DNA of 64,000 bases. It comes from Patescibacteria group bacterium (GTDB taxonomy: Bacteria; Patescibacteriota; Patescibacteriia; UBA9570). The translations under genes and the position numbers were made by a program. The notes beneath the pieces were generated by a model. The model saw only the letters and a list, made by a program, of their open reading frames with translations, had not been told where the DNA came from and did no database searches. Of the stretch, positions 9,400 to 58,601 are shown one piece after another (position 1 is the first letter of the stretch; each line of letters starts with the position of its first letter). The stretch covers positions 68,260 through 132,259 of the forward strand of contig JBAYIY010000003.1 of NCBI GenBank assembly GCA_041665365.1, in the 5' to 3' direction.

Positions 9400-10827
9400 T
9401 CAAGCAGCCTGGTTAGGATGTATGATTTTTTTTAGTTCTTGAATAATCAGTCGTATGCTATTACGGTCTAACCAATATAGTATAATTAAATAGATAGAAC
9501 CATCAACCAGTAAACCACAAATTAGTCGGAACCAAAATAAACTTGGTATAAAATGAATAATTAGTAAAAAACCAAGACCAGCTAACACACTGGATCCGAA
9601 AGATGGCCATAAAGCAAGCATAATATCTTGCCAACGAATCGGCAGAAGCTTATGAATTAAAAAATACATTATAGTTAAACTAACGAGGTAGACAATTGTG
9701 ATCATCCAAGCTGCTCCCGATAGAGCAAAAAAATGAATTGCAATAGGTAAACTTATCGCAGTCGCTAAAGTAATTCCAATTGACCAATAAAGCAACCAAT
9801 TAAGTTTGTCAAACGCTTTGAATATTGGTCCTGCGGGAGATACTATCACTTGGACATAGGTTAATATTGAAAGGATTTGTAAAATTGGAATAGTTTTAAT
9901 CCATATATTACCCCAAACAGCCGGAACAATAATTGGGGCCGTTATGATAATAGTCATAAGAATAGGTGTAACAATTGTGTGGGTTACGCGAGTGGTTAAT
10001 AAATATGAGTTTACTACAGCTTTAAGATCAGTTTGAAGATTGGAAAATTTTGGAAATAAATATATACCAATTGCTCCAACAAACATAGTAATTGGTGTTA
10101 CGGTAAATTTGAATGCAAATGAATAAATTCCAAGAGTCACTGTACCAAGCATCAGGGAAATAAAAATTTTTTCTGTATTTTGTGCAAAAAATTTAATAAT
10201 GTTGAACACTAATAGACGCGAACTATAAGGCCACAATTCTTTTACGGCTACCATTGAAAATTCTTTCAGATTTGGTCTCCAATCAGAGACACCCCATAAT
10301 ACCAACGTATTTATGACTGAGAGGCAAACTGTCTGAATGACTAAACTCCAGACACCAAAACCAAATAACGCTAGGGTGATGCCGATGCCACCACTGATAA
10401 CAGTTGAAATAGTATCTCGAATTGCTAAAACACGAAAATGTAATTTTTTTTGAGCTAAAGCAATTTGAGTGAGAGACAATGTATTAATTATAAAACTGAG
10501 TGACAATATTTGAATTACTGGTTTTAAGAGTGGAGTCGAAAAATAATTTGCGGCAAAACCAGCGCTAACAATACCGATAATAGTAAGTATCATTCCTACT
10601 AGAACATTAACAACAAAAATAGAACTAAAATGACGGTTGGTGACATTTTGTCGTTGAATTAAAGCCGAACTGAAGCCGTTTTCAGTGAAAGAATCCAGAA
10701 AAGAGATCATTATCATGGCTGTGGCCAATACACCAAAATCCTTAGGGCTAAGTAACCAACTTAAAATCGCAAAAATTATAAAAGAAAGACCTTGTTTACT
10801 GATCACTTGCAGAATAGACCAAATCAT
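9400..10827 (-). CDS. Wzx-like oligosaccharide or polysaccharide flippase (MOP superfamily)
   Basis: The product is 475 aa with about 12-14 transmembrane helices, an architecture typical of Wzx/PST proteins. It sits in the glycan locus. Confidence 0.65.
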   Translation of the reverse strand: MIWSILQVISKQGLSFIIFAILSWLLSPKDFGVLATAMIMISFLDSFTENGFSSALIQRQNVTNRHFSSIFVVNVLVGMILTIIGIVSAGFAANYFSTPLLKPVIQILSLSFIINTLSLTQIALAQKKLHFRVLAIRDTISTVISGGIGITLALFGFGVWSLVIQTVCLSVINTLVLWGVSDWRPNLKEFSMVAVKELWPYSSRLLVFNIIKFFAQNTEKIFISLMLGTVTLGIYSFAFKFTVTPITMFVGAIGIYLFPKFSNLQTDLKAVVNSYLLTTRVTHTIVTPILMTIIITAPIIVPAVWGNIWIKTIPILQILSILTYVQVIVSPAGPIFKAFDKLNWLLYWSIGITLATAISLPIAIHFFALSGAAWMITIVYLVSLTIMYFLIHKLLPIRWQDIMLALWPSFGSSVLAGLGFLLIIHFIPSLFWFRLICGLLVDGSIYLIILYWLDRNSIRLIIQELKKIIHPNQAA

Positions 10828-38900: not shown

Positions 38901-41900
38901 TTGTCCCATTCAAAGTCAGTGTAACTCCGCTGTGTGTCAGCATGACCGTGGTGATGGTAAGAATGTCGCTGGTATCAACATTAATAGTACCGGCAGCTGT
39001 ACAATTATCTGTTTGCATAGTCCAGGTGCCACTACCATCGCTGCCAATAAAGGTCACACTACTAAATGAAGAGGTTCCGCACTCTATCGTGTTATCAGTA
39101 TCGGCCGCATCAAAAATGACAGTTCCACTGGAATGCGTAAACGTCGCATTGTTATCCCAGTTACCACCTACATTAAATGTTCCAGTACCAGATGCAATCA
39201 GAGTGGCAGCGGCTGAAATAGTGATATTACCATTCACATCAAAGGTTGGATCATTTGTGTCTAAATTAAAAATACCGGCCGTGGCACTATCACCGACCAC
39301 CAAATTACCCAATACTGAAAACGTTCCACCACCGTTGGCATGAAAAGTGACCGCGCCGCTCGGCCGTACGCTCAAATTCCAATAGGATTCAAGTTGAATA
39401 TCCGTGGCTGCGTTACCAATGAAATCCACAGTTGAGTTTGTTCCCTCGTTTAAGGTGCCGGAGACAATAAATGGACGAGAAGCACCTTGCCCAGAACCAG
39501 TCAGGGTAAGGGTATAGCCAGATGATCCTAGTGCTAATGTGTCACCCGTTGTGACATCAACCTTCGTTGCTCGAGCATTCCCTGTTAATGTCACTGTTGA
39601 TGGTGCACCATTGATGGAAACTAAGCCAATATCTTGCCCAGATGAAGCATCAGACCAATTAGCTGCTCCGCCGTCAAATGTCCAGGTAGCGGTTCCGTTA
39701 TCGGCTTTAGTGACCAAGCCACTGGCGCCGATAGTTACGTTACCGGTCGTAGTTACATTCGGGTCGAGCACGGCCAAATCCAAGTCACCGTCCGTGATGG
39801 TAAAAGTACCGTTCACATCCAGATTGCCATCAACGTTCAGATCATCTGTTGCACCAGCACTGCCGGTGTTATTAAGTGTAATATCTTGGTAGGTCTCAGC
39901 GCCCGTCGTAAATGTTTGAGCGGCCGACGTGCTGTTGAATGTAATAATACCGCCGGTGGTAGCAGTGTATGCCGCGGAACCCGCCACAATAAAATCTCCG
40001 GACACGGTGATGCTGTTGTTATTTGCAGTCCAATTGCCAACGCCAGTCGTCGCAGTATCGCCGATTTCGATGTGAGTGGAAGTCACATCACCGCCGCCAG
40101 CAGAAGCCGGTTGGAAGGTATCGCCATCATCAATGTATAATTCTTCCTGACTAGATTGTGCTTCCGCATCCACCGTTAGATCGTTATCGACACTGACATC
40201 CCAAAACACATCGTCATCGCCGATAGCAACTGAATTGTCATAGACACCAACATCGCCATTGGTGATAGTTTGACCATCGACACTACCAATAGTGAGGTGT
40301 TCCTTAAACAAAGGGATGTTCGTCATGTCACCACTGCCATCGTATTTCGCCACTGCCCCGGATCGATCGGACATACTAGCAGCCGCATCAACCCATACCG
40401 TTACGATTTGACCGGTGGTAACTGTGACACCAGTGACTTCCCATGTACCAGCAATCACAGTATCTTCTTGCGCTTGCACACTGCCATCCACTGCTACTTT
40501 AATTGTACCGATATCTGTACAGTCAGTAGATTGGTCGAACGCATCACATGTTCCTGAAACGGTGACGGTGGGTGCTACTAATGTAGTAGCTCCTGAAATT
40601 TCTCGATCGTAAGCTGGGCCGATGCCTCCAGTGGATACTGCTACATCCGTTGATGGGGTGGTAATTTCTAATTCAACGGTTTCACCAGCCGAGGCCCCAG
40701 ATGTGATATCTAGCACTACATAGACACACATGGTAGAGGTCGGTGTGATTGCGACAGAACCAGTGAAGGTTGATGTGCCATCAGCACTACTGAACCCATC
40801 GGTATCAGTAGAGCCGTATTGCGTTTCTGTACCGGCAAATGATTCACTCGAACAATTATAAGGAGCGCTGGTGTCCGGCTCGTAATAGAGTTTGATGTTA
40901 TCCAAATCAGCTTGAGCATCCACCGTGCCATACTCAGTAATCATGATACTGGTAATGTTGGCAGTGGCAAGTGACTCGTTGATGGAGAAGGCTCCACCCA
41001 TGGAATTACCCGTTGTGTTAATAGTGACAGAAGAGGTTTGTGTACCTAACACGTTGACATTGGCGGTGTTAGAAGCCCGAAAGGCAAAGTCATATGGCTT
41101 GGTCGGCAATGATGTGGTAAGCGTCGCACCGGTAGACAAATCTGCTTCCCAAGCTCCCATGGTGGCTGTTTGGGTTAACCAAGTGCCGGTGGAAGCACCA
41201 TTCCACAGTTGGGATTCAGGTACTAAATCCAGTGTAAGGTCTTCCGCATTGAGCATGATTTTGTCTGATGATGGATCTGGAGAAAGATCAATACCCGACG
41301 GAACGTCAGCCCAAACCCCCAAACCTGAACACGGCCCATTCGAATCTTCTGCCGCTGATAAGTTGGTGACTTGTTCAGTGGTACCGGCTCCGCCTTCAGT
41401 TAACAAACAGAGTGAAGCATCGTCTATGGTCTGGAATTGCCCGGCCGACACATCAAATACCATCCAACGTAGTGCTGTTTCAGATGTAGTCCCGTCACGC
41501 CAAGCAAACAAGGCTCGATCCCCACCACCTTGCTCCCATTCCACATCTATCCCCTGGGCAAAGCCATTACTGTTAATGTCAACGTCCATGGTGGTAGGCT
41601 GTGTAATGGTTGTCCAATCTGAACCGTTCCACATGTCCACATTCATGTCAGCCGTATTGGTAGAGGCAGTGTCCTGCACAATCACGGCAATATAGTCGTT
41701 ATTTGGGCTGTCCGCGATCCGTAACCACTGCACAGCAGCCCCAGGATCTGTCATGCCAGTAGTGTCCGACCAACCGCTGCCCACGGTGTAGGTTGAAGCG
41801 TCAATAAACGGCGCTGCAGTGACATCGCCATACACAATCATACCCTCACCAGAGGAACCTTCCCAAGCAACGTCAAAATCTTGGCGTGTGGAGAGGCCAT

Positions 41901-44178
41901 TTTCCGCATTGATCTGAGCGATGTCCTGCCAGGCTGACCCATCCCAGCGTGCGCCATACACACCAAGATTGGTCCCTTCCCGCCAGCCGCACAAAATATT
42001 ATCTGTCCCAGGATCTGATTCGCACTCCACCCAGCGCGCAACATCATTACCTTGGTCGACACCGGAATAGTCAATTGAAGATTCACCAGACCAACTAGCG
42101 CCATCCCAAGTTTGATATTTAAGTGCCCCGTCACCTGTGGAACTATTTTCGTAAACTACAATGGCATCACCCGTATCACTTTCATAAGCAATATCAAAGC
42201 CGCGGTAAACATCATTCGTGGTGCCAATACCAGTTTCAAAATCTCCGTTGGTCGGTGCGTTAGTGCCATTAATCCACGCCGAAGTCGGACCATTATAGAT
42301 CTGGACATCTAAATGACCAGAGGCATTCAGCCGCCCCATCGTATATTCATTTCGATTTGGTGCTGATTCAATAATAGTGTGATTCGTATCATCACTCGCG
42401 GTTTCGTCGTCTTGTAGTTGACTTTCAGCGCTTAAATCCGTTGTGCTCCAGGTGCGATAGTGAGGAGTGGTATTATTGGCACCATCTTCGTCATACACTA
42501 ATATGCCTGTACCATCAGGCGTATCCGATGCAATTTGCCATGCTCTATCCTCTTCCCACACAGTGTTGTCTGTGACTAACAATACTAATGGGCCAAGTAA
42601 ATAGAGTTCTGGACTGATGTCAGGGGCGTCAAAGGTATAGCTTAGCTCGTAGGTTTCACCTGCTGTCCAATTCACATCCCAGGTGATGGTTCCACGACTC
42701 ATGGCACCGTCACCTTGATTAGAGATGACAAAATCCTCTGGAAAAGATTCCTGGACGGTACCGACAAAATTCGCTCTGGGTGTTACGCTAAACTCCATAG
42801 TGTAGGGTGCCATTGGCCAAATTCTAGTTGGACCAACTCGTTCAACTTCAAACTCTGGAGCCTTTTCGACATCATAATAATCACTAATCTCGTATTCGCC
42901 ATTGGCGGTGGTGGCCGTTAATTGCAGTTCAAACCGCCCAGTTTCGGAACCGTTATCAAAATAGGTATAATAATCTGGCAGTTCTACCACCGTGTCGCCG
43001 GCACATTCACTGCTGTAGGTAATACTGCCATCATTGGTAGATAGAGTGGTAGCTGTTCCAAGCGGAGAAGTGATAATTAAGTCCAGTTCGGCATCACATA
43101 ATGTGTGACCAGTTTCGTCCAACACTCCCATTTGAATAAAGGCTTGATCATCGGGGGCGAAGGTTCCTTGATTAACGTTGATGGTTAATACTCCCCAACT
43201 AAAGTCACGGGTGATAGTGGTTGTTTTTCCATTTTCATCGACAGTGATTGAAAAAGTATATTTTCCTGGTTTAGTAAAGTTATTTGTTCTGAGTTTATAC
43301 TCGGCATTTGAGTAACCATCCTTGGTTGTATTCTGTAAGTCATATTCAGGAGTTATAGTCTGACCATCCGGATCAATCAGTTCAATTTGTTCAACTGTGC
43401 GTTGCTCAGTAGTAAAACCTAGTTTTCCCCAAAAATCCTCATCTTTAATACCCGCTACAGTAACACTAGGTGTTTGGCCTTGTTCAAAATCGGGAGCGGG
43501 TAGTGTGATTGCTTCGTCAAGTGATGGTTTTTCAGGACGTTGAAACTCTAACTGTACTGCCACACCATCCAGCAACGCTTGTGTGGATTGGTCTGTGGGC
43601 ACCGCATCATATGCAACTTTGATTTTTAGTTGAGACAACGTGGTTTGAATATTATTTGCATCTAGGGTTAAGGGATATGTCCAATACCCACCATGTTTCG
43701 CATTATCATTATCCTCAACGAAGGCGAAAGAATCCAATGGTAGCCAAGTGTTGTCAGTTGTTTGGACAAATAATGAGACAACGTCTTCATTGTCCGTATA
43801 TCCATCAAGCGCGAGAGAAAAAATAACCTCAACTTTATCCAGTGTTTGTCCATCAGGAATGTTACTAGGCCAAACAAAGTCAGAACACACAATACTTGGA
43901 TTGGCTGTAGTTATCTGTTCCGCTGGTTGATTATAAAAGACAGCCGAGTTTTGTTCAGAAAATTGTTTTTTTCCGTCACTGCCTAATAAATCAATCGTGG
44001 TAGCCTGAGCCGCATGTTCCCAACCGACGCAATTAGTCGGTTGAACAGTTAAGGTTAGGCTGTTATTTTTCTCGGCCTTAACTGAAGGTATTGTTTTCCA
44101 ACCAATCAACAAGATAATAAAAAAGATCACTAAACTAAAGGTGCTAGGTAAGTTACGTTGATGTCTAAGTGCAGCCAT
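35902..44178 (-). CDS. Giant (~2,760 aa) secreted Thr/Gly/Ser-rich surface protein (putative adhesin) with internal ~340-aa duplications and a conserved ~165-aa C-terminal domain
   Basis: It is a single uninterrupted ORF. The preferred start is the ATG (MAALRHQ...) just after the upstream stop, followed by a hydrophobic signal or anchor. Two ~340-aa segments are about 70% identical. The last ~165 aa are homologous to the C-terminus of ORF 45616-46677. Confidence 0.7.
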   Translation of the reverse strand: MAALRHQRNLPSTFSLVIFFIILLIGWKTIPSVKAEKNNSLTLTVQPTNCVGWEHAAQATTIDLLGSDGKKQFSEQNSAVFYNQPAEQITTANPSIVCSDFVWPSNIPDGQTLDKVEVIFSLALDGYTDNEDVVSLFVQTTDNTWLPLDSFAFVEDNDNAKHGGYWTYPLTLDANNIQTTLSQLKIKVAYDAVPTDQSTQALLDGVAVQLEFQRPEKPSLDEAITLPAPDFEQGQTPSVTVAGIKDEDFWGKLGFTTEQRTVEQIELIDPDGQTITPEYDLQNTTKDGYSNAEYKLRTNNFTKPGKYTFSITVDENGKTTTITRDFSWGVLTINVNQGTFAPDDQAFIQMGVLDETGHTLCDAELDLIITSPLGTATTLSTNDGSITYSSECAGDTVVELPDYYTYFDNGSETGRFELQLTATTANGEYEISDYYDVEKAPEFEVERVGPTRIWPMAPYTMEFSVTPRANFVGTVQESFPEDFVISNQGDGAMSRGTITWDVNWTAGETYELSYTFDAPDISPELYLLGPLVLLVTDNTVWEEDRAWQIASDTPDGTGILVYDEDGANNTTPHYRTWSTTDLSAESQLQDDETASDDTNHTIIESAPNRNEYTMGRLNASGHLDVQIYNGPTSAWINGTNAPTNGDFETGIGTTNDVYRGFDIAYESDTGDAIVVYENSSTGDGALKYQTWDGASWSGESSIDYSGVDQGNDVARWVECESDPGTDNILCGWREGTNLGVYGARWDGSAWQDIAQINAENGLSTRQDFDVAWEGSSGEGMIVYGDVTAAPFIDASTYTVGSGWSDTTGMTDPGAAVQWLRIADSPNNDYIAVIVQDTASTNTADMNVDMWNGSDWTTITQPTTMDVDINSNGFAQGIDVEWEQGGGDRALFAWRDGTTSETALRWMVFDVSAGQFQTIDDASLCLLTEGGAGTTEQVTNLSAAEDSNGPCSGLGVWADVPSGIDLSPDPSSDKIMLNAEDLTLDLVPESQLWNGASTGTWLTQTATMGAWEADLSTGATLTTSLPTKPYDFAFRASNTANVNVLGTQTSSVTINTTGNSMGGAFSINESLATANITSIMITEYGTVDAQADLDNIKLYYEPDTSAPYNCSSESFAGTETQYGSTDTDGFSSADGTSTFTGSVAITPTSTMCVYVVLDITSGASAGETVELEITTPSTDVAVSTGGIGPAYDREISGATTLVAPTVTVSGTCDAFDQSTDCTDIGTIKVAVDGSVQAQEDTVIAGTWEVTGVTVTTGQIVTVWVDAAASMSDRSGAVAKYDGSGDMTNIPLFKEHLTIGSVDGQTITNGDVGVYDNSVAIGDDDVFWDVSVDNDLTVDAEAQSSQEELYIDDGDTFQPASAGGGDVTSTHIEIGDTATTGVGNWTANNNSITVSGDFIVAGSAAYTATTGGIITFNSTSAAQTFTTGAETYQDITLNNTGSAGATDDLNVDGNLDVNGTFTITDGDLDLAVLDPNVTTTGNVTIGASGLVTKADNGTATWTFDGGAANWSDASSGQDIGLVSINGAPSTVTLTGNARATKVDVTTGDTLALGSSGYTLTLTGSGQGASRPFIVSGTLNEGTNSTVDFIGNAATDIQLESYWNLSVRPSGAVTFHANGGGTFSVLGNLVVGDSATAGIFNLDTNDPTFDVNGNITISAAATLIASGTGTFNVGGNWDNNATFTHSSGTVIFDAADTDNTIECGTSSFSSVTFIGSDGSGTWTMQTDNCTAAGTINVDTSDILTITTVMLTHSGVTLTLNGTISGTGTLRILNTSSGPGAVGTLSSVVRYDASTASIANTTFDARTYGGAVELYANNGAAKSITAAAGNYIFSSTLTTAAGGAGEVTTDLSAATGTTAVASDLTIGATTVFSAPATLNLSGNYTNNGTFTDNSGTVSLVGGSQQTMAGTMTGTSDFNALTITNNSGIDPDASPSVIFSTAATTAGTFTATEANVKIRFNATSTYTLTNIMFDGLDISSRVFLRSSSTGSAWLLAATGTRSVSNTNVKDSNATLSGAVIDATNGTNYCDSGNTNWTCTAGVAITGFIRGTNESTVYDCNADPLTIHVSVNGGANADGSCSADTGAYTVTATTPAAGQPVVVFIDSGETPDGTTITLAADGSAISNLDIYRDRVVLTHESAGPITNANLITADNGDAGILYGMTGSNIAVDSGMELHIKDSKSYDPGGTVTTTSANMHVDDNATAYLDTATNTIAGDLLVDGGATLNIDADTAVTGGDITTAGTSAIVTKSAGTPTVTMTGTGSIGGGTTPTLNFYNLIIGTASSAATTLSNSTSVTNTLNVDTGDSLALSSGVVLTHSGATLILNGTISGAGKLTYQSPTNFPTTGTISAVLRFDSVNNSQAMGARTYGGAVEIYNSSGVARAVTAAAGTLNFSSTLDLSRSGAGTETLELNVSDPTTTIAGALTIGAGTTLSANSTNQLNINGNYTNSGTFTDNSSTVTLAGGSQQTLDGTMTGSSDFNNLTITNTSGTDPDVSPSVIFSASATTAGNFTATTASTKLRFLAGGTYTFQNVSFNGQTITTRVALRSSIAATDWNLNVVGTRSIYNTDVKDSDACGQAPNIDGTAVSNLNSTGNTCWNFESLTFAISDTTVGFGDLTTSNARFATGDLVGFDTTPTVAHTFTIFSSAASGYVITYLGTTLTNTDLDTISAATVTNDTDGSPNSEQFAFGITTNGDGSIVADYNATGGAPEYKFVAGATTPFFSELGTTTTETISAYYLANIASTTEPGTYTTDITYIMTGTF

Positions 44179-44179
44179 C

Positions 44180-45523
44180 TTATTTAGTATGTGTTTTGGT
44201 ATTTTTATGATTGTGCAGATGTACCGACCGTCTTTTATGAATGAACCCAAAGATCCAGAGATACACCAACACAATGATGAGTAGTATGAACAAAACAATC
44301 GCTAACCAATAATATGTAATAAAAATTATTCCAAGATAAAAGCCAACCCCTGGCCATTGTTCAACAATTGTTATAGTTGTTTTGGCGTCAGTAACATTTC
44401 CAGCTTTGTCTAAAGCCAAAACAGTAATGGTATGCTCACCATACGATTGTTCATCTAAGGTTATATTAGTCAGTTTGGCTGGTGTAATCTTGGCAAATAT
44501 TACTTGGCTATCAACTAGCACTGTATAAAAATCTATACCTGAAGTCTCATCTGCTGTGTAAAAATTAAAAGTTGGTCGACGATTTTTTGTAATAGAATCC
44601 GCATTTAAATTAATTGTAAATACTTTTGGAGGAGTATTATCTATCATTATCGTATAGTGGCGAGTTTCGCCCCAACTGGTGTCATTGCCTGATTTCACAT
44701 GAAAATACCAAATGCCATCCTGGCTGTTTGGCAACTCGGCAACGTTGTTGGTTCCTTCCACAGTATCATCTGGAACAGTATCCAGTTTATCATCATAGCT
44801 CCAACTAAAACGGGTCGCCCCAACAATTGGATCGAAACTAATTGTACCGTCATCATTGTTATACCACTGCTTTTGCTCAGATTGTATGCCATTAATAGTA
44901 ATTGGCATGGGTGATGGCAAGGTCTTCTCAGCTGTCGTTTTTTCCTCTTCTGTTAGTGTTTCTTCTGGCTTAATATATTTGGCCTTGTTTTCAACTGATA
45001 CTGGCGGTGGTAATGTTTGTGCTGCGATATTGTAAGTGGCTCCAGCAGCCCCGCCATATATATTCGTTCCTAACCCATCATTGGCCAAAATTTTTCCACC
45101 AACAACACTGAGTACAGCTGATCCATTAGCCCTGGCTTTAAAGGTGATACTAATAATAGTGCCATGCCCGCTATAACCAGGTGAGGCAACTCCACCGGAA
45201 AAGGAAATGGTGCTACTGGAATAAGATGGTTCTGACGTCCAGAGGGTAAAAATACCACCCTTACTAACACTAACAACTTCTAATTTGTCACCCGGATAAG
45301 TAACGGTAGCTTGAGCTGCATTTATTGCCACACCACCTGTATTGATAGCCACGGCAACAGTTTTGGTCTCGCCAATTTTCATGGTTCCCGTGGCAGGTGA
45401 TAATCCCAATGTGGCCATTGCCCAGGCGGATGAAGGAATTAACCAAACTAGTAACCCAACGATCAAGGTGAAAGTGAAAACAGTACTGTTTTTACTAAAC
45501 GTCATATTAAGAGATACTAACAA
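44180..45523 (-). CDS. Cohesin-domain cell-surface protein with a C-terminal transmembrane anchor
   Basis: It has a signal peptide. The cohesin-like block reads AAQATVTYPGDKLEVVSVSKGG...GTIISITFKARANGSAVL. The C-terminal hydrophobic anchor is LAIVLFILLIIVLVYLWIF, followed by a basic tail. Confidence 0.7.
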   Translation of the reverse strand: MLVSLNMTFSKNSTVFTFTLIVGLLVWLIPSSAWAMATLGLSPATGTMKIGETKTVAVAINTGGVAINAAQATVTYPGDKLEVVSVSKGGIFTLWTSEPSYSSSTISFSGGVASPGYSGHGTIISITFKARANGSAVLSVVGGKILANDGLGTNIYGGAAGATYNIAAQTLPPPVSVENKAKYIKPEETLTEEEKTTAEKTLPSPMPITINGIQSEQKQWYNNDDGTISFDPIVGATRFSWSYDDKLDTVPDDTVEGTNNVAELPNSQDGIWYFHVKSGNDTSWGETRHYTIMIDNTPPKVFTINLNADSITKNRRPTFNFYTADETSGIDFYTVLVDSQVIFAKITPAKLTNITLDEQSYGEHTITVLALDKAGNVTDAKTTITIVEQWPGVGFYLGIIFITYYWLAIVLFILLIIVLVYLWIFGFIHKRRSVHLHNHKNTKTHTK

Positions 45524-49904: not shown

Positions 49905-52900
49905 ATGGTTTGGCAACGTCATAACATGAATTTCAGCGTTTTTCCAGTATTTGTTAGTGTTGTTGTTTTTGGATTGTTATCAGCGCACTCCGCGTTAGCA
50001 GCCACCTACACCGTCAGTAAAACTGCGGATACCAATGATGGCACTTGTGATGCAGATTGTTCGTTACGTGAAGCGATTACAACAGCCAATGGTGCTTCCG
50101 GCAATAGCATTGAGTTTAATATCAATGGCGGCACGGATGCTGGCTGTACCGGTGCCGGTGGGGTTTGTACGATTACTCCTGCCAGTGCCTTACCAGATAT
50201 TACCGGCGCCTCAATGACAATCAATGGGTATACTCAAACTGGAGCAGTCGCTAATACTACAGCCAATGGCAGTGTTGTGACTGGTATCAATGGATTAAAT
50301 ACAACTTTACGAATCGTGCTGGATGGTACCTCAGCCGGTGGAGCAGCTAATGGACTAAAAATCAATGGGGTAGCTAATGTAGTAATTAAGGGCTTAGACA
50401 TAATGCGCTTTGGTAGCAATGGTGTGTTGGCTACGGGAGCAGGAGCGACTAACTTGAAAGTGCAGGGTTGTTTTATTGGAACAGATGTTACCGGAACACT
50501 GGATCAGGGAAATTCTGGCAATGGAGTAGCGGCTGTCACTGGCGCTACAGTTATCGTGGGTACCGATGGTGATGGTGTGACTGACGTAGCGGAACGTAAC
50601 TTGATCTCTGGCAATAGTACTTATGGCATTAACATTGCCGGTGGCACAGGTAGTAAAGTTTCAGCGAATATAATTGGCCTAGCTAGTGATGCCAGCACTG
50701 ATCTGGGTAACTTAGGTAACGGTGTTTATGCAACAGTCTCATCAACCATCATCGGCACCAATGGTGATGGCACCAGCGATACGATTGAAGGCAATATTGT
50801 GTCAGGGAATGATCAAAGTGGGATTAACATTAATGGTGGTGGTTCAGATACTATTACTGGTAATATTGTCGGTCTGAATGGTGTTGGCACCACTACTGTC
50901 CGCAATACTTTGAATGGTATCTTGTTGTTTGGCACCGGTTCGAATCGAGTGGGCACCAATGGCGATGGTGTCAGTGATACCTATGAAAGAAATGTTTCAT
51001 CCGGTCATTCTGGTAATTTTTATTATGGCTTAGAGGTGATTAGTCCAAGTAATACTGTGGCGGGAAATTATTTTGGCACGGATATTACCGGTACAGTCCT
51101 GCATGGAAATTTACGTAATGTACTTGTATCCGGCAATAATAATATTATTGGCACAAACGGCGATGGTAATGGAGATACCGTAGAAGGCAATGTCATAGCT
51201 GGTGGTACTGGCGCCGATGGTCTGTATATCAGTACCGTGGCAACTATCACAGTTGCGGGCAATAAGATTGGTACAGATTATTCAGGCACAGCCGCGCTGG
51301 GCAATACCCATGGTATTCGGATTGATGGAACAGATTCAGGCATTGTAATTGGTACCAATGCCGATGGTGTGTCCGATAGTGCCGAGCGCAACATTATTTC
51401 CGGTAATCAGGTGGGTATTTTCATGGAACAAGGGTCTTCCAATACTGTGATTGCCGGTAATTATATTGGTTTGAATACTGCTGGTACGGGCACAGTTGGT
51501 GGCTCATATGGTGGTAATCGCTATGGTATTAGTATTGGTCGAATATGGCCTGGGGCGGGTACATCCAGTGACAATCGTATCGGTACGAATGGCGATGGGG
51601 TGAATGATGCCGCTGAGGCTAATGTTATTTCTGGTAATTATACTTATGGAGTGGTCATGGCCACCGGCAATAGTAATACGATCGCTGGCAACTATATTGG
51701 CACCGGTCCAGATGGAGTGACAGAGTTTGCTAATGGTGAAGCAGGCATTGCGTGGTACGATGGTGCTCCTGACGTTTCCAATAGTTCAAGTAACACTATT
51801 GGTGGTGATACTATAGCTGAAGGCAATGTTATTGCGTCTAACGGTTCTTATGGTATTGAACTAAGCGGGGTATCCAGCGATGGCAATTTAATTAGCCATA
51901 ATAAGATGTTTTCTAATCTACTTGAAGGTATTTTTCTTCCCGGTGATGGCTCAAATAATGATATGAGTGCCCCAGTCATTACTAGTTGGGCACCAAGTGG
52001 ATCAGATTTAACTATTTCCGGAACCGCTCCGGCCAGTGCGGTAGTTGAATTATTTGATGCCTCCACCGATGAAGGAGAAACCTATCTTAATGCCGCCACT
52101 GCGAATGGGTCTGGTAATTGGTCAACTACGATCAGTGCCCCCTATACAGCGGCTAATAATACTTTGGTCGCAACCGCCCGAGATGGCAGCAATGATACAT
52201 CCATGTTTAGTGCTGTGTATACTATCACGGATATAGCGCCGACTACACCAACCGATCTGCAAACCTCCAGTCTGTTTGGGGGTTGTGGATCAGATAGTAC
52301 TCCAGAGTTTTCTTTTACGTTAACAGATAGTGATGTCGTAGATACGGTTGGTTATCACATTCAGATAGATAATGATGCAGATTTTTCATCACCCGTGGTT
52401 GATTACAACTCAGGGTTAGCTGCTCAAGGCACAGCCTCATTTGTAGTTGGCCAAGCCGTTGGCTCTGGTGTATATACCACTGGTTCTGCTGGACAAACGT
52501 TAACAGACGGAAGTTATTCTATGCGGGTGCAAACCATTGATTTTCTTAGTCAAACATCAGCTTATGTCACACAAACATTTGGAGTTGATAATGGTGTCAC
52601 AGTTAGTACACCCGCATCAGCCACCACATCCGAATTAGGTGATACAACTACTTTCACAGTGGTGTTAGCTTGTCTGCCACAAAATGACGTGACTATACCT
52701 GTAGTCAGTTCAGATACCACTGAAGGTAGTGTTTCCACGGCGGCACTCACTTTTACTACTGGAAACTGGAATGTGGCACAAACTATTACAGTGACAGGAG
52801 TAGATGATTCTAGTTCAGATGGTAACATTAATTATTCAATCCAATTAGGTCCAACCACTTCGAGTGATACGGCTTATAGTGGGGTCACCATAGCTGATGT

Positions 52901-55673
52901 GTCACTGACTAATATTGATGAAGATTTACCACCACAGTTTTCTGGTACCATTCCGGATCAAACTTGGGATGAAGATACTACTTTAACTAATGTCTTTAAT
53001 TTGGATGATTATTTTACTGATCCCACCACAGAGGGGCTTAGTTACAGTGTGGCCGGGGCTGACAATATTACAGTGACAATTGGGAGTGATGGACAGGTAA
53101 CGCTTGTTCCTGATGCGGATTGGCATGGTACGGATACAATGAAATTTGTGGCGCAAAATTCTATTGGGCAAACTAAGTCTAATCAGGTAACTCTGACAGT
53201 AGAAAGTATTAATGATGCACCAGAAGCGCCCACCATTTTTTCGCCGTGTTGTCAGGATGTGACAGCTTCATTGTCGCCGACTATTTCCTGGCAAGCAGCC
53301 TCTGATCCGGATCATACTACAAGTGAATTGTCGTATGAGATACGGTTCGGTTCGGATGCTGATCCGCAAAATAATTATCATTTTACAGCTAGTACTTCTG
53401 CCGGTAGTAAATCTGTAAAAATTTCTCCAGATTTAACTGATGAGAAGACCTATTACTATGTGGTACGAACCATTGATCCACTGGATGCTAAGTCAAATTG
53501 GTCTGAGATACAAAGCTTTTCCACCAATGTCAGTTATAGTCCTGACCTACAGTTAGCCAAAACGGTAGAATTACCGGCCGAACAGATTGCTTGGTTTGGC
53601 ATCAACTTTGCTGCCTTATTCTTGATCCAACCAGCTCAGGCCAGTGGGTTTGCGATTATTAGTCCAGACCAAATCGCTGACCAATCGTTCATGGTGTTAA
53701 TCGGATCACTGACGATATTACTCTCCGCCGCGCTGGTTATATTAGGATTGGCTCGTCATCCGAAAAATTTCGTGACAGCCTTACTACACGATGTGCCAGT
53801 GGCATTTAAGCGGATTCATAAATCGGGTCATGGCACTATCACCACTTCGTATACGAGTTTCAGACGTCGGTTAGTAACCGCTCGTAGTATTATCTATCTG
53901 GCAGCGCTTGTGTTTGTTCCTGCCCTCGTCATTAATGGATTACATGCCGAAGTGAGTAACTGGTTACAGCGGGTACAAACGGTCAGTACCACTATACAAC
54001 CAGGTGAAACTATGACTATATCACTCAGTTATAGCAATACAGGTGATGGTGACGCTACCAGTGTGGTGTTGTCTGATACGATCCCTGGCGAAACAACTTT
54101 GCTCAGCAGTTCGATACCGGCCACACAACAGGCCGACCAGATCAGTTTTGACCTGGGCACCATCCCGGTAGGTGGCACAGGCACAGTCAGCTATCAGTTG
54201 GGTGTAGCCGAACCTTATGATCATGATTCAATAGTACTTGATCCGGCAGAATTAATCGCTAACGAAATAACGGCCTCGGTGTTGTCGGATAGTGTGGTAG
54301 TCCCTGTAGTATCCGGCACTATCTCTGGCCAAGTAACTGATGGCGCTGGTGTTGGAATCACCAACGTGTTGATCACATTACAATGGGGCGATCAACAAAC
54401 CTTCTCAACACTCACCGATGCTAATGGGTATTATGTATTGAGTGGCTTAGCGAGTGGGGATTATGTAGTGACGGCCTACACACAACAAAAAACGACTAGC
54501 TTGACCCGTGGTGGTAGTGCCACTGTTAATTTCAGTTTTGTCAGTAGTAGCATCCGTCAAGACAACACGAATACAAACACTGACACCACTACTGACACCA
54601 CTACTGACACCACGACGGATGTCAAAACTCCAAAACCTATCAAGTTAACGCCAGAGCAGCAAGAGTTGGTGGATAATTTTGTGGTCACAGATTTAAATAA
54701 TGAAGTATTACCAGAGAATCAAGCGGTGATATATCTGACCGATGATCCAAGCTCAGTTCCAACGGGTGCATTAGCCTTGCCGACCGCAACCGAAACATTA
54801 ACCTTTCGTGGCACCACTGTACCGAATAGTACCATTACGATCCAAATTTGTTATACCATTTTAACGACTACTAGTGATGAAACCGGCGCCTGGATTATGG
54901 TAGTGCCGCGCGACTTATTACTCCAAGGTGATAATGTGATTACCGCCAGTGTCACACAAGGTAATGTGGAAGTAGACCAAATTGTGGTAGCACACGTCAA
55001 TGTAGATAATGCACCTACGGCTCAGTCGACCAATTATTGGATAAATTTTATTGCCATCGCTTTATTACTACAGTTGAATATAGCCGCCTGGATAGTGTTA
55101 CGCGTTCGGCACAGTAGTACGACGCTGTCTAGCAAATTGATTTTACTTCACCTGGTGACCGTGGTGGTAGTGGTCATCTTTTTGTTTGTGCCGGTGCCGC
55201 AAAGTCGGCAGGTGCAAGCGCGTGGGCATTTACGCCAAACCAATATCATGGCTAGATTGGTGAATAACCAACCATTGACTGATCAGTATATCACTTTTCA
55301 GGACACGCAAGCCTTAGAATTAGTGGGTTCAGCTTCAGCCGACCAACAGTATAGTGTCTCGATTTGTCCCAATCAACCATTCCGTTATGTGACCACCAAT
55401 CATGCTGGTCAGTGGAGTTTGATTCTACCGGTGAGTGTACTGCCCAACTTCGATGTGACAGTAGCGATGCGATCAGCGACCGATACGACTCAAACTGAAG
55501 AGCAGTTAGTGGATCTCAATGTGCAAGAAAAATATGATACGGTGACGCTATGGCGTTGGATAGTATTAGCCTTGATTGCCAGTGGGGCGTTTATTACAGT
55601 GGGGAATTGGTTCATCGTGTATCGGACAGTGCACAAACCAAAAAGTAAAGAAGTAAAGGAGAATATGGCTTAG
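49905..55673 (+). CDS. Giant (1,922 aa) parallel-beta-helix repeat surface protein with FN3/Ig-like, DUF11-like and CarboxypepD_reg-like domains and several predicted transmembrane segments
   Basis: The signal peptide is followed by more than 15 repeats of the N-x-I-S-G-N beta-helix type (IGTNGDG...NxISGN). Other domains present include DAPEAP (cadherin/FN3-like), GTISGQVTDGAGVGITN...YYVLSGL (CarboxypepD_reg) and a (TDTT)n repeat. Hydrophobic helices occur around aa 1235-1300 and 1700-1900. An alternative start is at 49926. Confidence 0.7.
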   Translation: MVWQRHNMNFSVFPVFVSVVVFGLLSAHSALAATYTVSKTADTNDGTCDADCSLREAITTANGASGNSIEFNINGGTDAGCTGAGGVCTITPASALPDITGASMTINGYTQTGAVANTTANGSVVTGINGLNTTLRIVLDGTSAGGAANGLKINGVANVVIKGLDIMRFGSNGVLATGAGATNLKVQGCFIGTDVTGTLDQGNSGNGVAAVTGATVIVGTDGDGVTDVAERNLISGNSTYGINIAGGTGSKVSANIIGLASDASTDLGNLGNGVYATVSSTIIGTNGDGTSDTIEGNIVSGNDQSGININGGGSDTITGNIVGLNGVGTTTVRNTLNGILLFGTGSNRVGTNGDGVSDTYERNVSSGHSGNFYYGLEVISPSNTVAGNYFGTDITGTVLHGNLRNVLVSGNNNIIGTNGDGNGDTVEGNVIAGGTGADGLYISTVATITVAGNKIGTDYSGTAALGNTHGIRIDGTDSGIVIGTNADGVSDSAERNIISGNQVGIFMEQGSSNTVIAGNYIGLNTAGTGTVGGSYGGNRYGISIGRIWPGAGTSSDNRIGTNGDGVNDAAEANVISGNYTYGVVMATGNSNTIAGNYIGTGPDGVTEFANGEAGIAWYDGAPDVSNSSSNTIGGDTIAEGNVIASNGSYGIELSGVSSDGNLISHNKMFSNLLEGIFLPGDGSNNDMSAPVITSWAPSGSDLTISGTAPASAVVELFDASTDEGETYLNAATANGSGNWSTTISAPYTAANNTLVATARDGSNDTSMFSAVYTITDIAPTTPTDLQTSSLFGGCGSDSTPEFSFTLTDSDVVDTVGYHIQIDNDADFSSPVVDYNSGLAAQGTASFVVGQAVGSGVYTTGSAGQTLTDGSYSMRVQTIDFLSQTSAYVTQTFGVDNGVTVSTPASATTSELGDTTTFTVVLACLPQNDVTIPVVSSDTTEGSVSTAALTFTTGNWNVAQTITVTGVDDSSSDGNINYSIQLGPTTSSDTAYSGVTIADVSLTNIDEDLPPQFSGTIPDQTWDEDTTLTNVFNLDDYFTDPTTEGLSYSVAGADNITVTIGSDGQVTLVPDADWHGTDTMKFVAQNSIGQTKSNQVTLTVESINDAPEAPTIFSPCCQDVTASLSPTISWQAASDPDHTTSELSYEIRFGSDADPQNNYHFTASTSAGSKSVKISPDLTDEKTYYYVVRTIDPLDAKSNWSEIQSFSTNVSYSPDLQLAKTVELPAEQIAWFGINFAALFLIQPAQASGFAIISPDQIADQSFMVLIGSLTILLSAALVILGLARHPKNFVTALLHDVPVAFKRIHKSGHGTITTSYTSFRRRLVTARSIIYLAALVFVPALVINGLHAEVSNWLQRVQTVSTTIQPGETMTISLSYSNTGDGDATSVVLSDTIPGETTLLSSSIPATQQADQISFDLGTIPVGGTGTVSYQLGVAEPYDHDSIVLDPAELIANEITASVLSDSVVVPVVSGTISGQVTDGAGVGITNVLITLQWGDQQTFSTLTDANGYYVLSGLASGDYVVTAYTQQKTTSLTRGGSATVNFSFVSSSIRQDNTNTNTDTTTDTTTDTTTDVKTPKPIKLTPEQQELVDNFVVTDLNNEVLPENQAVIYLTDDPSSVPTGALALPTATETLTFRGTTVPNSTITIQICYTILTTTSDETGAWIMVVPRDLLLQGDNVITASVTQGNVEVDQIVVAHVNVDNAPTAQSTNYWINFIAIALLLQLNIAAWIVLRVRHSSTTLSSKLILLHLVTVVVVVIFLFVPVPQSRQVQARGHLRQTNIMARLVNNQPLTDQYITFQDTQALELVGSASADQQYSVSICPNQPFRYVTTNHAGQWSLILPVSVLPNFDVTVAMRSATDTTQTEEQLVDLNVQEKYDTVTLWRWIVLALIASGAFITVGNWFIVYRTVHKPKSKEVKENMA

Positions 55674-55811
55674 TAGCCAACGATTCTCCAGTCTGATGTT
55701 CCTTTAATCTTCGATTGAGATCATTCGTTGAACCAACATAAACCCAATTCTTTTTTACTTGGCTTTTAAGAAAATAGACATACCACATAACGAATATTAT
55801 TTATTAAGCAC

Positions 55812-55913
55812 TTCTGGCCTGCCAGACTGCACTAAGTTTCGTCTGGCCTGCCAGACTGCACTAAGTTTCGTCTGGCCTGCCAGACTGCACTAAGTTTCGT
55901 CTGGCCTGCCAAA
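55812..55913. repeat. 29-bp tandem repeat (tctggcctgccagactgcactaagtttcg), about 3.5 copies
   Basis: Three perfect copies (55812-55840, 55841-55869, 55870-55898) are followed by a degenerate partial copy. It lies about 30 nt from the 3' end of tRNA-Ser. Confidence 0.85.
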
Positions 55914-55944
55914 CGAAGTCCTGAAGTTGCTGAAGGACGTAGTT

Positions 55945-56033
55945 TGGCGGAGAGAGAGGGATTCGAACCCTCGATACCTTGCGGTATACACGCTTTCCAA
56001 GCGTGCGCACTAGACCAACTATGCGATCTCTCC
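55945..56033 (-). tRNA. tRNA-Ser (anticodon GGA), class II with a long variable arm; 3' CCA is encoded
   Basis: On the minus strand the sequence reads GGAGAGA..TCTCTCC-G-CCA for the acceptor stem. The anticodon stem CACGC/GCGTG carries the loop TTGGAAA. The variable arm is long. The T-arm reads GAGGG-TTCGAAT-CCCTC. Confidence 0.8.
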
Positions 56034-56087
56034 TTACCTAAGGTTTTTAGCACTTTATTGGGATTTTGTACACTCTTTAGATTATTA

Positions 56088-56381
56088 TTAGAGTTGTTTT
56101 ATTTTTGGGTAGTTATGAATTTTTTCCAAAGTTGAAATAGTTAAAGCTACGGACGGATTGGTAGTATTTTTTAGAGATAATTTTTTGCCAAATTTTTTGT
56201 ATAACGGAGTAATGAACTCATCGCCCCAAGACGGTGAAAATGAAATGACCTCTGAAAAATCTAAGATCACTGCTTCTGTTTTATTAATTTCAGATAAAAT
56301 TGGCAAAAAAGCGGCATAAGCTTCTTTGCCAGCCTGGCGTGAGGCTAGCACAGTACCAAATTTTTTTAAAAATATATTCAT
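56088..56381 (-). CDS. DUF4325-like (STAS-like) small protein
   Basis: The ~97-aa product carries the S-W motif (FSPSWGDEF) characteristic of DUF4325. It lies immediately downstream of a GHKL ATPase gene. Confidence 0.5.
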   Translation of the reverse strand: MNIFLKKFGTVLASRQAGKEAYAAFLPILSEINKTEAVILDFSEVISFSPSWGDEFITPLYKKFGKKLSLKNTTNPSVALTISTLEKIHNYPKIKQL

Positions 56382-56392
56382 AGTTATTTTAA

Positions 56393-57127
56393 TTAAAATT
56401 TTAACAATGATAAACAACCATGTACAGTTGTGGCAGCAGACAAAATTTTAAAATCGGTTTTATCTGGAGAGATCGTCAAGATGGCATCACCAGTCTGAAA
56501 GCTTAAATTGGCTCGAGCCTTTTCAATGGCCGCTTTAACATATTTTAAACCATTGCCGCGATGTTCTGATTTTCTGCTACTCAGCACTTCAGTAAAGGCA
56601 ACATTTAGTGCTTCTGCATCGTTTTTTAAGTCGTGTTTAATACGGCGCAACGTTGTTAAAATACCAACACCACGGTCAGCTAATACTACCATACGTTTAC
56701 CGATATCGTAGGCAAAAAATGTTCCTGTAATATCTGGCCAGTTACCGATGTTGTGATCATATGAATTATTTCCAATTTCACCAGCCGCCGAAGAAATGAG
56801 TGAAGCAATATTTTGCACAGACTTTGTATTAGTTAATTCATAAGCCAAATGTTCGAGCCGAGCTTTAAATATATCACTAGTTGGACAATAAAACTCTTTA
56901 GCCAATGCTGGGGGAGTAATGGCACTAGCCCAATCTTGACCTAAACGAAAAATGCCTTTTGTCTTCTTACCCAAATCAGCCAGCGAATAATACCGATGTC
57001 CACCAGGTGAAATAAATGTTGAGCTAAAAGAACCATTTTTATCCCAGCGGCGCAAGGTTGTTTCAGTAATCCCTAAGTATTCTGCTGCTTGGCTAATAGT
57101 AAGGAATTGTTCAGTAAAATTGTACAT
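56393..57127 (-). CDS. Xis/MerR-type HTH protein fused to a GHKL-family (HATPase_c-like) ATPase domain
   Basis: The N-terminus LTISQAAEYLGITETTLRRWDKNG...GGHRYY is an excisionase-family HTH. The C-terminus has an N-box (EIGNNSYDH), G1 (LADRGVGI) and G2 (RGNGLKYV). Confidence 0.55.
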   Translation of the reverse strand: MYNFTEQFLTISQAAEYLGITETTLRRWDKNGSFSSTFISPGGHRYYSLADLGKKTKGIFRLGQDWASAITPPALAKEFYCPTSDIFKARLEHLAYELTNTKSVQNIASLISSAAGEIGNNSYDHNIGNWPDITGTFFAYDIGKRMVVLADRGVGILTTLRRIKHDLKNDAEALNVAFTEVLSSRKSEHRGNGLKYVKAAIEKARANLSFQTGDAILTISPDKTDFKILSAATTVHGCLSLLKF

Positions 57128-57247
57128 ATATTCATATATTATACAAAACTATACATTTTTGTCAAATCTATACAAATCTATACATTATTTAAAGTTGACT
57201 TATTGATCAATAACTGATATTAAGGTACCCCAAATACGGAGAGAGAC

Positions 57248-57940
57248 GTGTTCAATAAGTTCTTTCATGTGTTTTGTCCGGTTTTTTTCGTGATTTTTGG
57301 CCTGGTTGGGTGTGACAAGCACACCACCCCGGGCGGAGGGGGCACCGCTACTGCACTCTGGTACGAGTTTTGTGGAGGGGAGGTCGACGCGGACTGTGAC
57401 GGGTATCTCGAACCCGCCGACTGCGACGATGCTGACTCGGCCGTGAGCCCGTACGCTGTCGAGGTCTGCGACGAGATCGACAACGACTGCAACGGGGAGG
57501 TCGACGAAGACCTTCCAATGTTGGAGTGGTATCCCGACGACGATGGCGACAGCTACGGAGAAGATGGGTCAGAACCCATCCTCGACTGTCGCGAACCACG
57601 CGGGCGGTATACCTGGCGCGACGGCGACTGCGATGATAGTAACATCTCAGTCAATCCGGCCGTGCCCGAGCACTGCAACAGCATCGACGACAACTGCGAC
57701 GGCATCGTCGACATCGATGCCTGGGATACCCATGAGTGGTATCCCGACGTCGATGGTGACGGCTACGGCGACGAACTCGCCGAACCCGTCTCAGCCTGTT
57801 ACCAGCCGCCCGGCTACAGCGACTGGCCGGCCGACTGTGACGACACCAACGCGGAGATCTATCCGCGGGTGGCGGAGGTCTGCAATAACGTCGATGATGA
57901 CTGCGACGGGTGGGTCGACGATGGGTTGACCTGCGAGTAG
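57248..57940 (+). CDS. Lipoprotein with four MopE-like putative metal-binding repeats (DCDD...P.A.E.CD.IDNDCDG.VDE); GC-rich, probably foreign
   Basis: A signal peptide with lipobox LVGC is followed by repeats such as ADCDDADSAVSPYAVEVCDEIDNDCNGEVDED and GDCDDSNISVNPAVPEHCNSIDDNCDGIVDID. Codon usage is GC3-rich and local GC is about 60-65%. Confidence 0.65.
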   Translation: MFNKFFHVFCPVFFVIFGLVGCDKHTTPGGGGTATALWYEFCGGEVDADCDGYLEPADCDDADSAVSPYAVEVCDEIDNDCNGEVDEDLPMLEWYPDDDGDSYGEDGSEPILDCREPRGRYTWRDGDCDDSNISVNPAVPEHCNSIDDNCDGIVDIDAWDTHEWYPDVDGDGYGDELAEPVSACYQPPGYSDWPADCDDTNAEIYPRVAEVCNNVDDDCDGWVDDGLTCE

Positions 57941-57989
57941 TCGCAATAAGTTAGGGGGAACAAGCTCGAGGTTGATGGTCACACTGATC

Positions 57990-58601
57990 TCATCTCGGGC
58001 TTTTTCTGTTTTTTCCAGCCAAACGCCAATGGTTAACCACTAGGATGGTTGCCATAATGGCCGAGCCAACGGTGTTATACGTGATATCTAATAAAGTATT
58101 AGTGTAATCACCCACTTGTTTTCCGATATTAAAAATCAACACCGCAATAAACTCAATTAATTCATTCACAGCACCTAAACCCATGCCAACTAGTACTAAC
58201 AATAAAATAAAATAACCGCGTCTCCGTTCAAAGGTGATATTAAGCACGGGAAAAAGCAAGGCATGAGCCAGCATCACCATAATGGCACTACCTACCATAT
58301 GAACAAAATTATCATACCGAAACAAACCTGGTATTAAATAGAAATCATATAATCTAATATCACCTAAATAAGCATTGCTGCCGAGCAAATGCAGTAACCC
58401 AAGCAGAGATAATGAGGTGAGTAGAATCGGGTAAAAATGCAGTCGGCGATTAATATAAACAATCAATCCAATCGACAAAACAATTAGTGCCGTATCATAA
58501 ATAAATTCAACATTGCCTTTGAGCAGAGAGTGCAACGAAAAGATCGAGACATAAACGAAGGTGAAATAGACAATGAATTTTTCAAATTGGTTTTGTGTCA
58601 T
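57990..58601 (-). CDS. Hypothetical polytopic membrane protein
   Basis: The 203-aa product has about six transmembrane helices. It is translationally coupled (ATGA overlap) with the upstream gene. Confidence 0.35.
   Translation of the reverse strand: MTQNQFEKFIVYFTFVYVSIFSLHSLLKGNVEFIYDTALIVLSIGLIVYINRRLHFYPILLTSLSLLGLLHLLGSNAYLGDIRLYDFYLIPGLFRYDNFVHMVGSAIMVMLAHALLFPVLNITFERRRGYFILLLVLVGMGLGAVNELIEFIAVLIFNIGKQVGDYTNTLLDITYNTVGSAIMATILVVNHWRLAGKNRKSPR

Follow-up and report, generated by a model that had tools for sequence, protein, structure and literature searches.

Introduction

Horizontal gene transfer into Patescibacteria is already documented, and most of the transfers described took place within Patescibacteria and are not recent, with recent ones from other phyla being rare (PMC12455944). 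Here, we examine a 64,000-nucleotide (nt) stretch of the genome of a Patescibacteria group bacterium (GenBank assembly GCA_041665365.1, contig JBAYIY010000003.1, positions 68,260 to 132,259; hereafter the window, whose own coordinates are used throughout), in which a gene for a 230-amino-acid (aa) lipoprotein with repeats of the PF11617 family differs strongly from its surroundings in guanine-plus-cytosine (GC) content. In our reading, to which we assign a probability of roughly 0.78, this intact gene was gained by horizontal transfer from a high-GC bacterium into a Patescibacterium related to Kerfeldbacteria, and its product would be exported, lipid-anchored, built of repeated modules, and active at the cell surface.

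PF11617 repeat proteins number in the thousands. The family carries the Pfam name Cu-binding_MopE and the description "putative metal-binding motif", although it covers no more than a small part of the copper proteins MopE and CorA and lacks specificity (PMC6189053). The Cu(I) site of MopE* consists of kynurenine-130 (derived from Trp130), His132, and His203, and the first 46 residues of that protein are invisible or cleaved in crystals (PMC3423442). Further, the PF11617 core resembles the cysteine-rich core of teneurin (PMC3278476).

Results

A lipoprotein gene of foreign composition

A first-pass annotation, made from the letters alone, had marked an island of about 60-65% GC at this locus, and sliding 200-bp windows bear this out, with 59-65% GC across 57300-57999 and 27-44% over the ~1 kb on each side (27-31% at 57000-57299, returning to 35-38% past 58000). 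Its figure of about 35% for the neighboring genes was too low; they measure 37-43%. The 650-bp window at 57301 (62.0% GC) is the global maximum of all such windows, which average 40.4% (standard deviation [sd], 5.3%), and it stands at z=4.2. Maximum-likelihood two-state segmentation delimits a segment of 61.5% GC, the left boundary of which (57299; support interval, 57289-57308) falls on the lipobox codons, while the right boundary is loosely placed (57934-58083). The sole long open reading frame (ORF) in the island begins with GTG and ends with TAG, and its portion from 57299 to 57940 has 62% GC vs ~40% for the window mean. The features of the gene are as follows.

57248..57940, plus strand: ORF of 230 aa for a PF11617-repeat lipoprotein (MFA6475043.1, NCBI name [quoted passage not shown])
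57248..57313, plus strand: signal peptide MFNKFFHVFCPVFFVIFGLVGC, with lipobox LVGC at 57302-57313, read from the sequence; GC 39%, third-codon-position GC (GC3) 0.50
57299..57989, no strand: GC-rich segment of foreign composition (two-state segmentation, GC profiles)
57386..57508, plus strand: repeat unit 1, loop D47-A-D-C-D-G-Y-L-E55 and then the PF11617 motif at residues 58-86 (regular expression; DNA repeat family D1)
57524..57712, plus strand: repeat unit 2, EWYPDDDGDSYGE loop (residues 93-105), Cys114, PF11617 motif at residues 127-155 (DNA repeat families D1 and D4)
57734..57919, plus strand: repeat unit 3, EWYPDVDGDGYGD loop (residues 163-175), Cys184, PF11617 motif at residues 196-224 (DNA repeats, alignment, regular expression)

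Codon usage sets the gene apart as well. Specifically, the ORF has 60% GC and a GC3 of 0.745 (0.77 past codon 22), whereas in the window's remaining ORFs that reach 150 aa (n=42) the GC3 is 0.32±0.05 with a maximum of 0.41, which places the lipoprotein gene ~8 sd above its host. Codons ending in G or C dominate, as the annotation had said: GAC outnumbers GAT by 32 to 11, TGC outnumbers TGT by 9 to 5, AAC outnumbers AAT by 7 to 2, GTC encodes 11 of the 14 Val residues, and GGC and GGG are favored for Gly, whereas the host favors GAT, TGT, GGT, and AAT. Recoding the mature part with host codon usage gave an expected 47% GC and a GC3 of 0.32, compared with the observed 62.5% and 0.77; amino acid content thus accounts for only ~7 of the ~22 extra GC points.

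After the island, the next highest GC content in the window (45-47%, locally ~50%) belongs to two giant ORFs, at 35902-44298 on the minus strand (2798 aa) and at 49905-55673 on the plus strand (1922 aa). The product of at least the latter resembles a surface protein, as it carries a signal peptide along with repeats rich in Gly, Thr, and Asn.

Absence from the syntenic position in relatives

The gene order across the locus is the 1922-aa surface protein, tRNA-Ser(GGA), DUF4325, MerR-HTH (helix-turn-helix), the GC-rich gene, DUF2238, a C39-like peptidase, MurJ, DnaG, and RpoD. Between tRNA-Ser and DUF2238 lies an insertion block of 1956 bp (56034-57989), with the following edges.

55945..56033, minus strand: tRNA-Ser(GGA), left edge of the insertion; adjoins DUF2238 in relatives
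57990..58601, minus strand: gene for a DUF2238 membrane protein, in convergent orientation to the lipoprotein gene; bounds the insertion on the right and is the first gene of the conserved DUF2238-C39-MurJ-DnaG backbone

Relatives were found by a MurJ scan of species-representative genomes, which yielded Candidatus Kerfeldbacteria and related metagenome-assembled genomes (MAGs) with MurJ 58-63% identical and 45-48% GC; a metagenome scan with the DUF2238 protein gave no match, and an alignment-based rescan gave two loci. The DnaG-MurJ-C39-DUF2238 order is kept in seven of the loci so retrieved (L004-L008, L025, and L026). In L007, tRNA-Ser(GGA) starts 20 bp past DUF2238. The L004 contig ends inside tRNA-Ser, ~40 bp past DUF2238, the first 28 nt being the same as in the window tRNA when read by eye, and the contig end of L006 shows the same pre-tRNA motif. 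Because relatives keep tRNA-Ser right after DUF2238, this adjacency is, as judged from the retrieved contigs, the ancestral state. The slot itself is variable and a recurrent site of gene gain, as L026, a lower-GC relative from a JGI metagenome, holds a different gene there, of 388 aa and unknown function (4099-5265) and unrelated to that in the window. No orthologue of the lipoprotein gene occupies the slot in the relatives with contigs that reach past DUF2238 (L004, L007, and L026), so that the gene is absent at the syntenic position in genomes with MurJ 47-63% identical.

The contigs of L004 (12980), L006 (9221), and L025 (6619) all end 35-105 bp past DUF2238, at or inside tRNA-Ser, which suggests strain variation or assembly-breaking repeats at a hotspot.

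Homologues follow the composition of their own genomes

Homologues with PF11617 repeats gave 2,898 matches. Named top matches were mostly MAGs of Myxococcales, Myxococcota, and Deltaproteobacteria, with single entries from Oligoflexia, Alphaproteobacteria, and Falkowbacteria. The earlier description had called the motif typical of Myxococcota and Planctomycetota; no Planctomycetota is among these named matches. A family-wide constraint to high GC was rejected, as five homologues elsewhere differ from their flanking sequence by at most 8 GC points.

Falkowbacteria P0081: gene 44% GC (GC3 0.42), flanks 36%
P0006: gene 53% GC, flanks 54%
P0004: gene 69% GC, flanks 74%
P0045: gene 67% GC, flanks 70%
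P0002: gene 54.5% GC, flanks 53.6%

Probable horizontal transfer and its alternatives

The atypical codon composition, the absence of the gene from the DUF2238-tRNA-Ser junction in relatives, and the tendency of PF11617 genes elsewhere to track genome GC together argue for horizontal transfer, the first of three readings offered at first pass. The donor would be a bacterium of roughly 60-65% GC, and the transfer would be recent enough that no amelioration shows. The GC-rich gene would have settled in the variable slot between DUF2238 and tRNA-Ser(GGA), beside a MerR-like/DUF4325 cassette that is typical of Patescibacteria and was acquired on its own. Low GC marks the first ~17 codons as well as the 5' untranslated region; both may have been supplied locally, resulting in a compositional mosaic.

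Several observations weigh against this account. First, the best non-self matches are 43-52% identical, and no close donor sequence was found. Second, the synteny relatives are distant, and absence from them does not date the event. Third, 55500-58300 contains no integrase or mobility genes, and a search for att-type repeats returned only 10-nt matches to the tRNA ends, which is chance level (~4 expected in 2.8 kb). A viral vector was likewise rejected, as scans of viral contigs with the lipoprotein and the MerR-like protein gave no relatives. Finally, no solved structure matches the protein, and the function proposed below is predicted from its motifs.

The 5' end of the gene bears on a variant of the transfer account, which refines it and does not exclude it. 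Its upstream portion is as follows.

57188..57247, plus strand: unique AT-rich 5' region of the lipoprotein gene; its GGAGAG at 57238-57243 resembles a Shine-Dalgarno sequence and lies 4 nt ahead of the GTG start

In this variant, which we rate as a possibility of somewhat less than even odds, foreign sequence begins only at the lipobox, while promoter, ribosome-binding site, and signal core derive from local or other low-GC DNA, through recombination with the 5' end of a native lipoprotein gene or recruitment of T-rich intergenic sequence. A fusion onto a native signal peptide had also been raised by the first-pass annotation, according to which the first ~45 nt share the AT-rich composition of the host. 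An AT-rich 5' part (~51 nt) is indeed present, and the change point at 57299 coincides with the lipobox, codons 1-22 having 39% GC vs 62.5% afterwards. The hydrophobic region (h-region) of the signal, FFHVFCPVFFVIFG, has seven Phe residues and no Ala, whereas homologues from GC-rich genomes carry Ala/Leu-rich signals such as MRRLLLVAALLLTAC; the signal of a 225-aa PF11617 lipoprotein in the sister MAG L004 keeps donor-type, GC-rich codons (CTG, TGC), with a GC3 of 0.71. However, with 0.50 for the 22 codons, 0.29 expected for the host, and 0.77 in the remainder of the gene, the GC3 of this part is intermediate rather than host-like, the sample is small, and Phe codons alone make the segment T-rich. 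When the window and 24 loci were searched with blastn-short and tblastn for a source of the leader or of the 60-bp 5' region, only self matches came back, and thus no paralogous signal peptide or 5' region. Moreover, a lipobox followed by ~20 residues, DADGDGY, and then DCDD is the standard layout among homologues, so the donor gene probably already encoded a lipoprotein, and transfer of the whole gene fits as well. Either low-GC DNA replaced the original leader, which is possible but unproven, or 22 codons are too few for judgment.

No promoter or terminator for the lipoprotein gene passed the consensus scan; an upstream TTGACT-17-TATTAA was a weak promoter candidate and fails the -10 criterion of that scan. 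An origin of the 5' end as part of the MerR cassette was rejected as well, given that the cassette promoter ends at ~57187 and the neighboring genes differ in every other genome.

Next in order comes the view that the gene belongs to a native Patescibacteria family holding its high GC through codon selection or GC-biased gene conversion among repeats, which we consider improbable. It draws on two GC-rich genes of L004.

L004, 3128-3805: 225-aa PF11617 lipoprotein, 64% GC, GC3 0.82, 186 bp from tRNA-Asn
L004, 92-1477: 461-aa PF11617 protein, 60% GC, GC3 0.83

These genes, which flank tRNA-Asn (2870-2942) and a DUF6602/SEC-C gene in a background of 45.5% GC, are the only other compositional mismatch found among the homologues examined. 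The internal repeats of the window gene, though only 65-73% identical at the DNA level, could also still recombine. The annotation had held that comparable GC in homologues from sister genomes would speak for a native, if atypical, gene; such homologues formally exist in L004, but they do not support nativeness. They occupy another locus, past RpoD-ThyX, and the corresponding interval of L005 lacks them. Their identity to the window protein, only 34-36%, is below that of the Myxococcota-type matches. The comparison points to independent acquisitions and not to an inherited GC-rich family. The lack of an orthologue at the slot in L004, L007, and L026 and the host-like GC3 of the Falkowbacteria homologue (0.42) further argue against a native family. 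We know of no native mechanism for a 45-point GC3 shift confined to one gene.

A separate locus, L020, carries an unrelated 247-aa hypothetical gene (9555-10298) of ~60% GC in a Patescibacteria contig of 46% GC, which is apparently foreign.

The remaining reading, a chimeric assembly or contamination, is made very unlikely by other assemblies. The identical protein is recorded at NCBI, on 138-kb JGI and 180-kb ENA contigs (the former compared at the protein level only), and in two Logan assemblies. The ENA contig (L001) agrees with the window at 100% identity along 16.8 kb except near 55.85 kb, where the window has 58 bp (two 29-bp units) more, and because this tandem-repeat copy number differs, it represents a separate assembly. 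Logan contigs from the runs SRR6484324 (2,074 bp) and SRR18595301 (920 bp) match the window at 100% identity through the AT-to-GC junction and the gene, and the former runs on into DUF2238 and the C39-like gene. Both stop at 57147, inside a 39- to 51-nt promoter element shared at 88-100% by several Patescibacteria, a place where a de Bruijn graph would naturally break. Although the abrupt composition break and the position of this element (57136-57187, 110 bp upstream), a kind of repeat that can cause misjoins, would suit reads of a high-GC organism joined into a Patescibacteria contig, such a chimera is very unlikely, because contigs from at least two separate runs cross the 57299 and downstream DUF2238/C39 junctions with identical sequence, two long contigs from other assemblers span the junctions too, the ORF continues in frame across the junction into a complete lipoprotein precursor, and tRNA-Ser and DUF2238 adjoin in sister genomes, which assigns both flanks to one genome.

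Three modules in the encoded protein

The lipoprotein matches PF11617 at E=2.5e-30 with 104.8 bits, against a cut-off of 27, in the HMMER comparison that had been proposed at first pass; at E<=0.01 the profile finds three stretches, and at E<=10 it finds four, while no NCBIfam model matches. The sequence consists of three ~70-aa units spaced 207-210 nt apart. Regular expressions locate the acidic loop DxDxD[GS]xx[DE] once per unit (residues 47-55, 97-105, and 167-175) and the full motif DCDDx(10)ExCxxxDxxCxGxxD three times (residues 58-86, 127-155, and 196-224). The annotation had recognized the PF11617 motif but counted four Cys/Asp-rich repeats; three motifs are complete, and DADCDGY (47-53) is the loop that precedes motif 1. 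The LVGC lipobox that it had named is present as L19-V20-G21-C22, preceded by a basic M-F-N-K n-region and the hydrophobic h-region described above, which fits the lipobox pattern [LVI][ASTVI][GAS]C of signal peptidase II substrates as read from the sequence.

The mature protein is 20.7% Asp and contains 14 Cys. Aligned to 31 homologues, the protein retains every one of the 22 family-invariant columns (Asp, Cys, Gly, Pro, and Glu), and the AlphaFold2 model built from this alignment has a mean predicted local distance difference test (pLDDT) score of 86.8, rising above 90 from residue ~50; because the columns are all kept and the model is confident, the gene is regarded as intact. The model is non-globular and contains almost no regular secondary structure, which would be as expected for small knots held by disulfides and metal ions. 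Foldseek found no similar solved structure in the PDB (best E, 3.2), phmmer gave no PDB match at E<=1, and Pfam returned no significant match to TSP3, TSP3_bac, FG-GAP, or EF-hand, with only EF-hand_7 appearing at E=2.9 (8.7 bits).

Proposed function

On the basis of its motifs, the product would be exported and lipid-anchored through the LVGC lipobox, with the three ~70-aa modules of the mature part arranged as a short rod. A calcium-type DxDxD[GS]xx[DE] loop and a four-cysteine, Asp-rich PF11617 motif would make up each module, and loops and acidic motifs would coordinate Ca2+. Two disulfides per module are predicted, and the modules are probably held by these disulfides together with a divalent metal, either Ca2+ or another. 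Its role would most likely be that of a short, rigid, highly acidic surface module for adhesion or surface structure, not that of a MopE-type copper chaperone; a copper function finds no support in any of the comparisons made here.

A broader scenario would be that Kerfeldbacteria-like episymbionts repeatedly capture PF11617 lipoprotein genes from high-GC bacteria, place them 5' of tRNA genes in variable slots, re-equip them with host-type expression and export signals, and use them to attach to or mimic the donor surface. The donors would possibly be their own hosts or neighbors in the prey community, such as Myxococcota. Two independent GC-rich insertions (window and L004) and the mosaic 5' end make repeated capture compatible with the data, but we regard the full scenario as unlikely.

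The neighboring cassette and flanking sequence

The insertion block is made of two parts of different origin, namely the GC-rich gene and a MerR-like/DUF4325 cassette with the following features.

56088..56417, minus strand: DUF4325 (STAS-like) partner of the MerR-like gene (Pfam; co-occurrence in the cassette)
56393..57127, minus strand: MerR-type HTH protein, 244 aa, host-like AT-rich composition (Pfam and NCBIfam match the N-terminal HTH only)
57136..57187, minus strand: conserved promoter/operator of the MerR-like cassette, a perfect TTGACA-16-TATAAT plus repeated TGTATAG boxes; cassette edge on the side of the GC-rich gene (cross-genome comparison, promoter scan)

The MerR-like/DUF4325 pair occurs in very many Patescibacteria at 55-65% identity, with a constant MerR-like length of 244 aa and in unrelated neighborhoods, and looks like a mobile regulatory or defense-like module. 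The C-terminal part of the MerR-HTH protein looks ATPase-like, with no Pfam or NCBIfam match there. Over 30-51 nt, the sequence 5' of the cassette matches that in other Patescibacteria (L020 3520-3558, L022 5942-5992, and L024 2188-2217) at 88-100% identity, while the proteins are only ~62% identical, and the conserved operator/promoter looks as if it travels with the cassette. About 10 nt separate the end of its -10 element from the ATG, which suggests an mRNA with almost no leader.

An integrative mobile element or classical tRNA-associated island was rejected for this locus, given the lack of mobility genes and att repeats and the position of the insert, which lies on the 5' side of tRNA-Ser. 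Just 3' of that tRNA, at 55813-55914, is a 29-bp tandem repeat, TCTGGCCTGCCAGACTGCACTAAGTTTCG, with a short palindrome, and its copy number varies between assemblies or populations. A 58-aa ORF at 55612-55788 on the minus strand, which overlaps the 3' end of the 1922-aa gene, has a GIY-YIG-like N terminus and a weak, sub-threshold match to a group I intron endonuclease family; it is probably a remnant.

Comparison with known systems

As an instance of gene gain, the window gene resembles those reported in Patescibacteria (PMC12455944) in being a single foreign gene in a variable region of a streamlined Candidate Phyla Radiation (CPR) genome. It differs in that its donor was compositionally very distant and the gene is un-ameliorated. 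Given that such transfer has been documented and that the protein family is large and poorly understood, the case is otherwise ordinary, yet it is a clean and checkable one in which a streamlined CPR bacterium gained a gene across phyla, apparently recently. What stands out is its extreme, un-ameliorated composition, a 5' end that may be mosaic, and the independent GC-rich PF11617 pair in a sister genome. The predicted surface-exposed product belongs to the class most likely to matter for the cell contact of an episymbiont, and if the acquired gene has a surface role, the donor composition might hint at the organism with which this Patescibacterium lives.

As a protein, it shares with PF11617 repeat proteins of Myxococcota ("Deltaproteobacteria") and other bacteria the unit WYxDxDGDGYG...C...DCDDxxxxxxPxAxExCxxxDxDCDGxxDE, with all invariant Cys and Asp kept, as well as an N-terminal lipoprotein signal, which is common in the family. 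It departs from them in having three units instead of the typical four to six, in its identity to known members (<=52%), in being encoded with donor-type codons in a 40%-GC Patescibacteria genome, and in its Phe-rich, low-GC signal peptide. The DxDxD[GS]xx[DE] stretch in each unit recalls the DxDxDG calcium loops of EF-hand-like, FG-GAP, and thrombospondin type-3 proteins, a likeness by pattern only.

With the surface copper-binding proteins MopE/MopE* of Methylococcus capsulatus and CorA of Methylomicrobium album, it has one motif copy in common. The family profile aligns to MopE* residues 5-44 only (2VOV chain, E=2.2e-5), and the window protein is without similarity to the MopE* core or its Cu(I) site. 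Because this match is limited to a region outside the Cu(I) site, the lipoprotein is, as judged from its sequence, a member of the PF11617 motif family and not of the MopE/CorA copper-protein family. The label "MopE-like metal-binding" given at first pass is therefore apt for a shared motif of ~40 aa and overstates the rest. The practical warning is that a PF11617 match does not make a protein a MopE-type copper protein.

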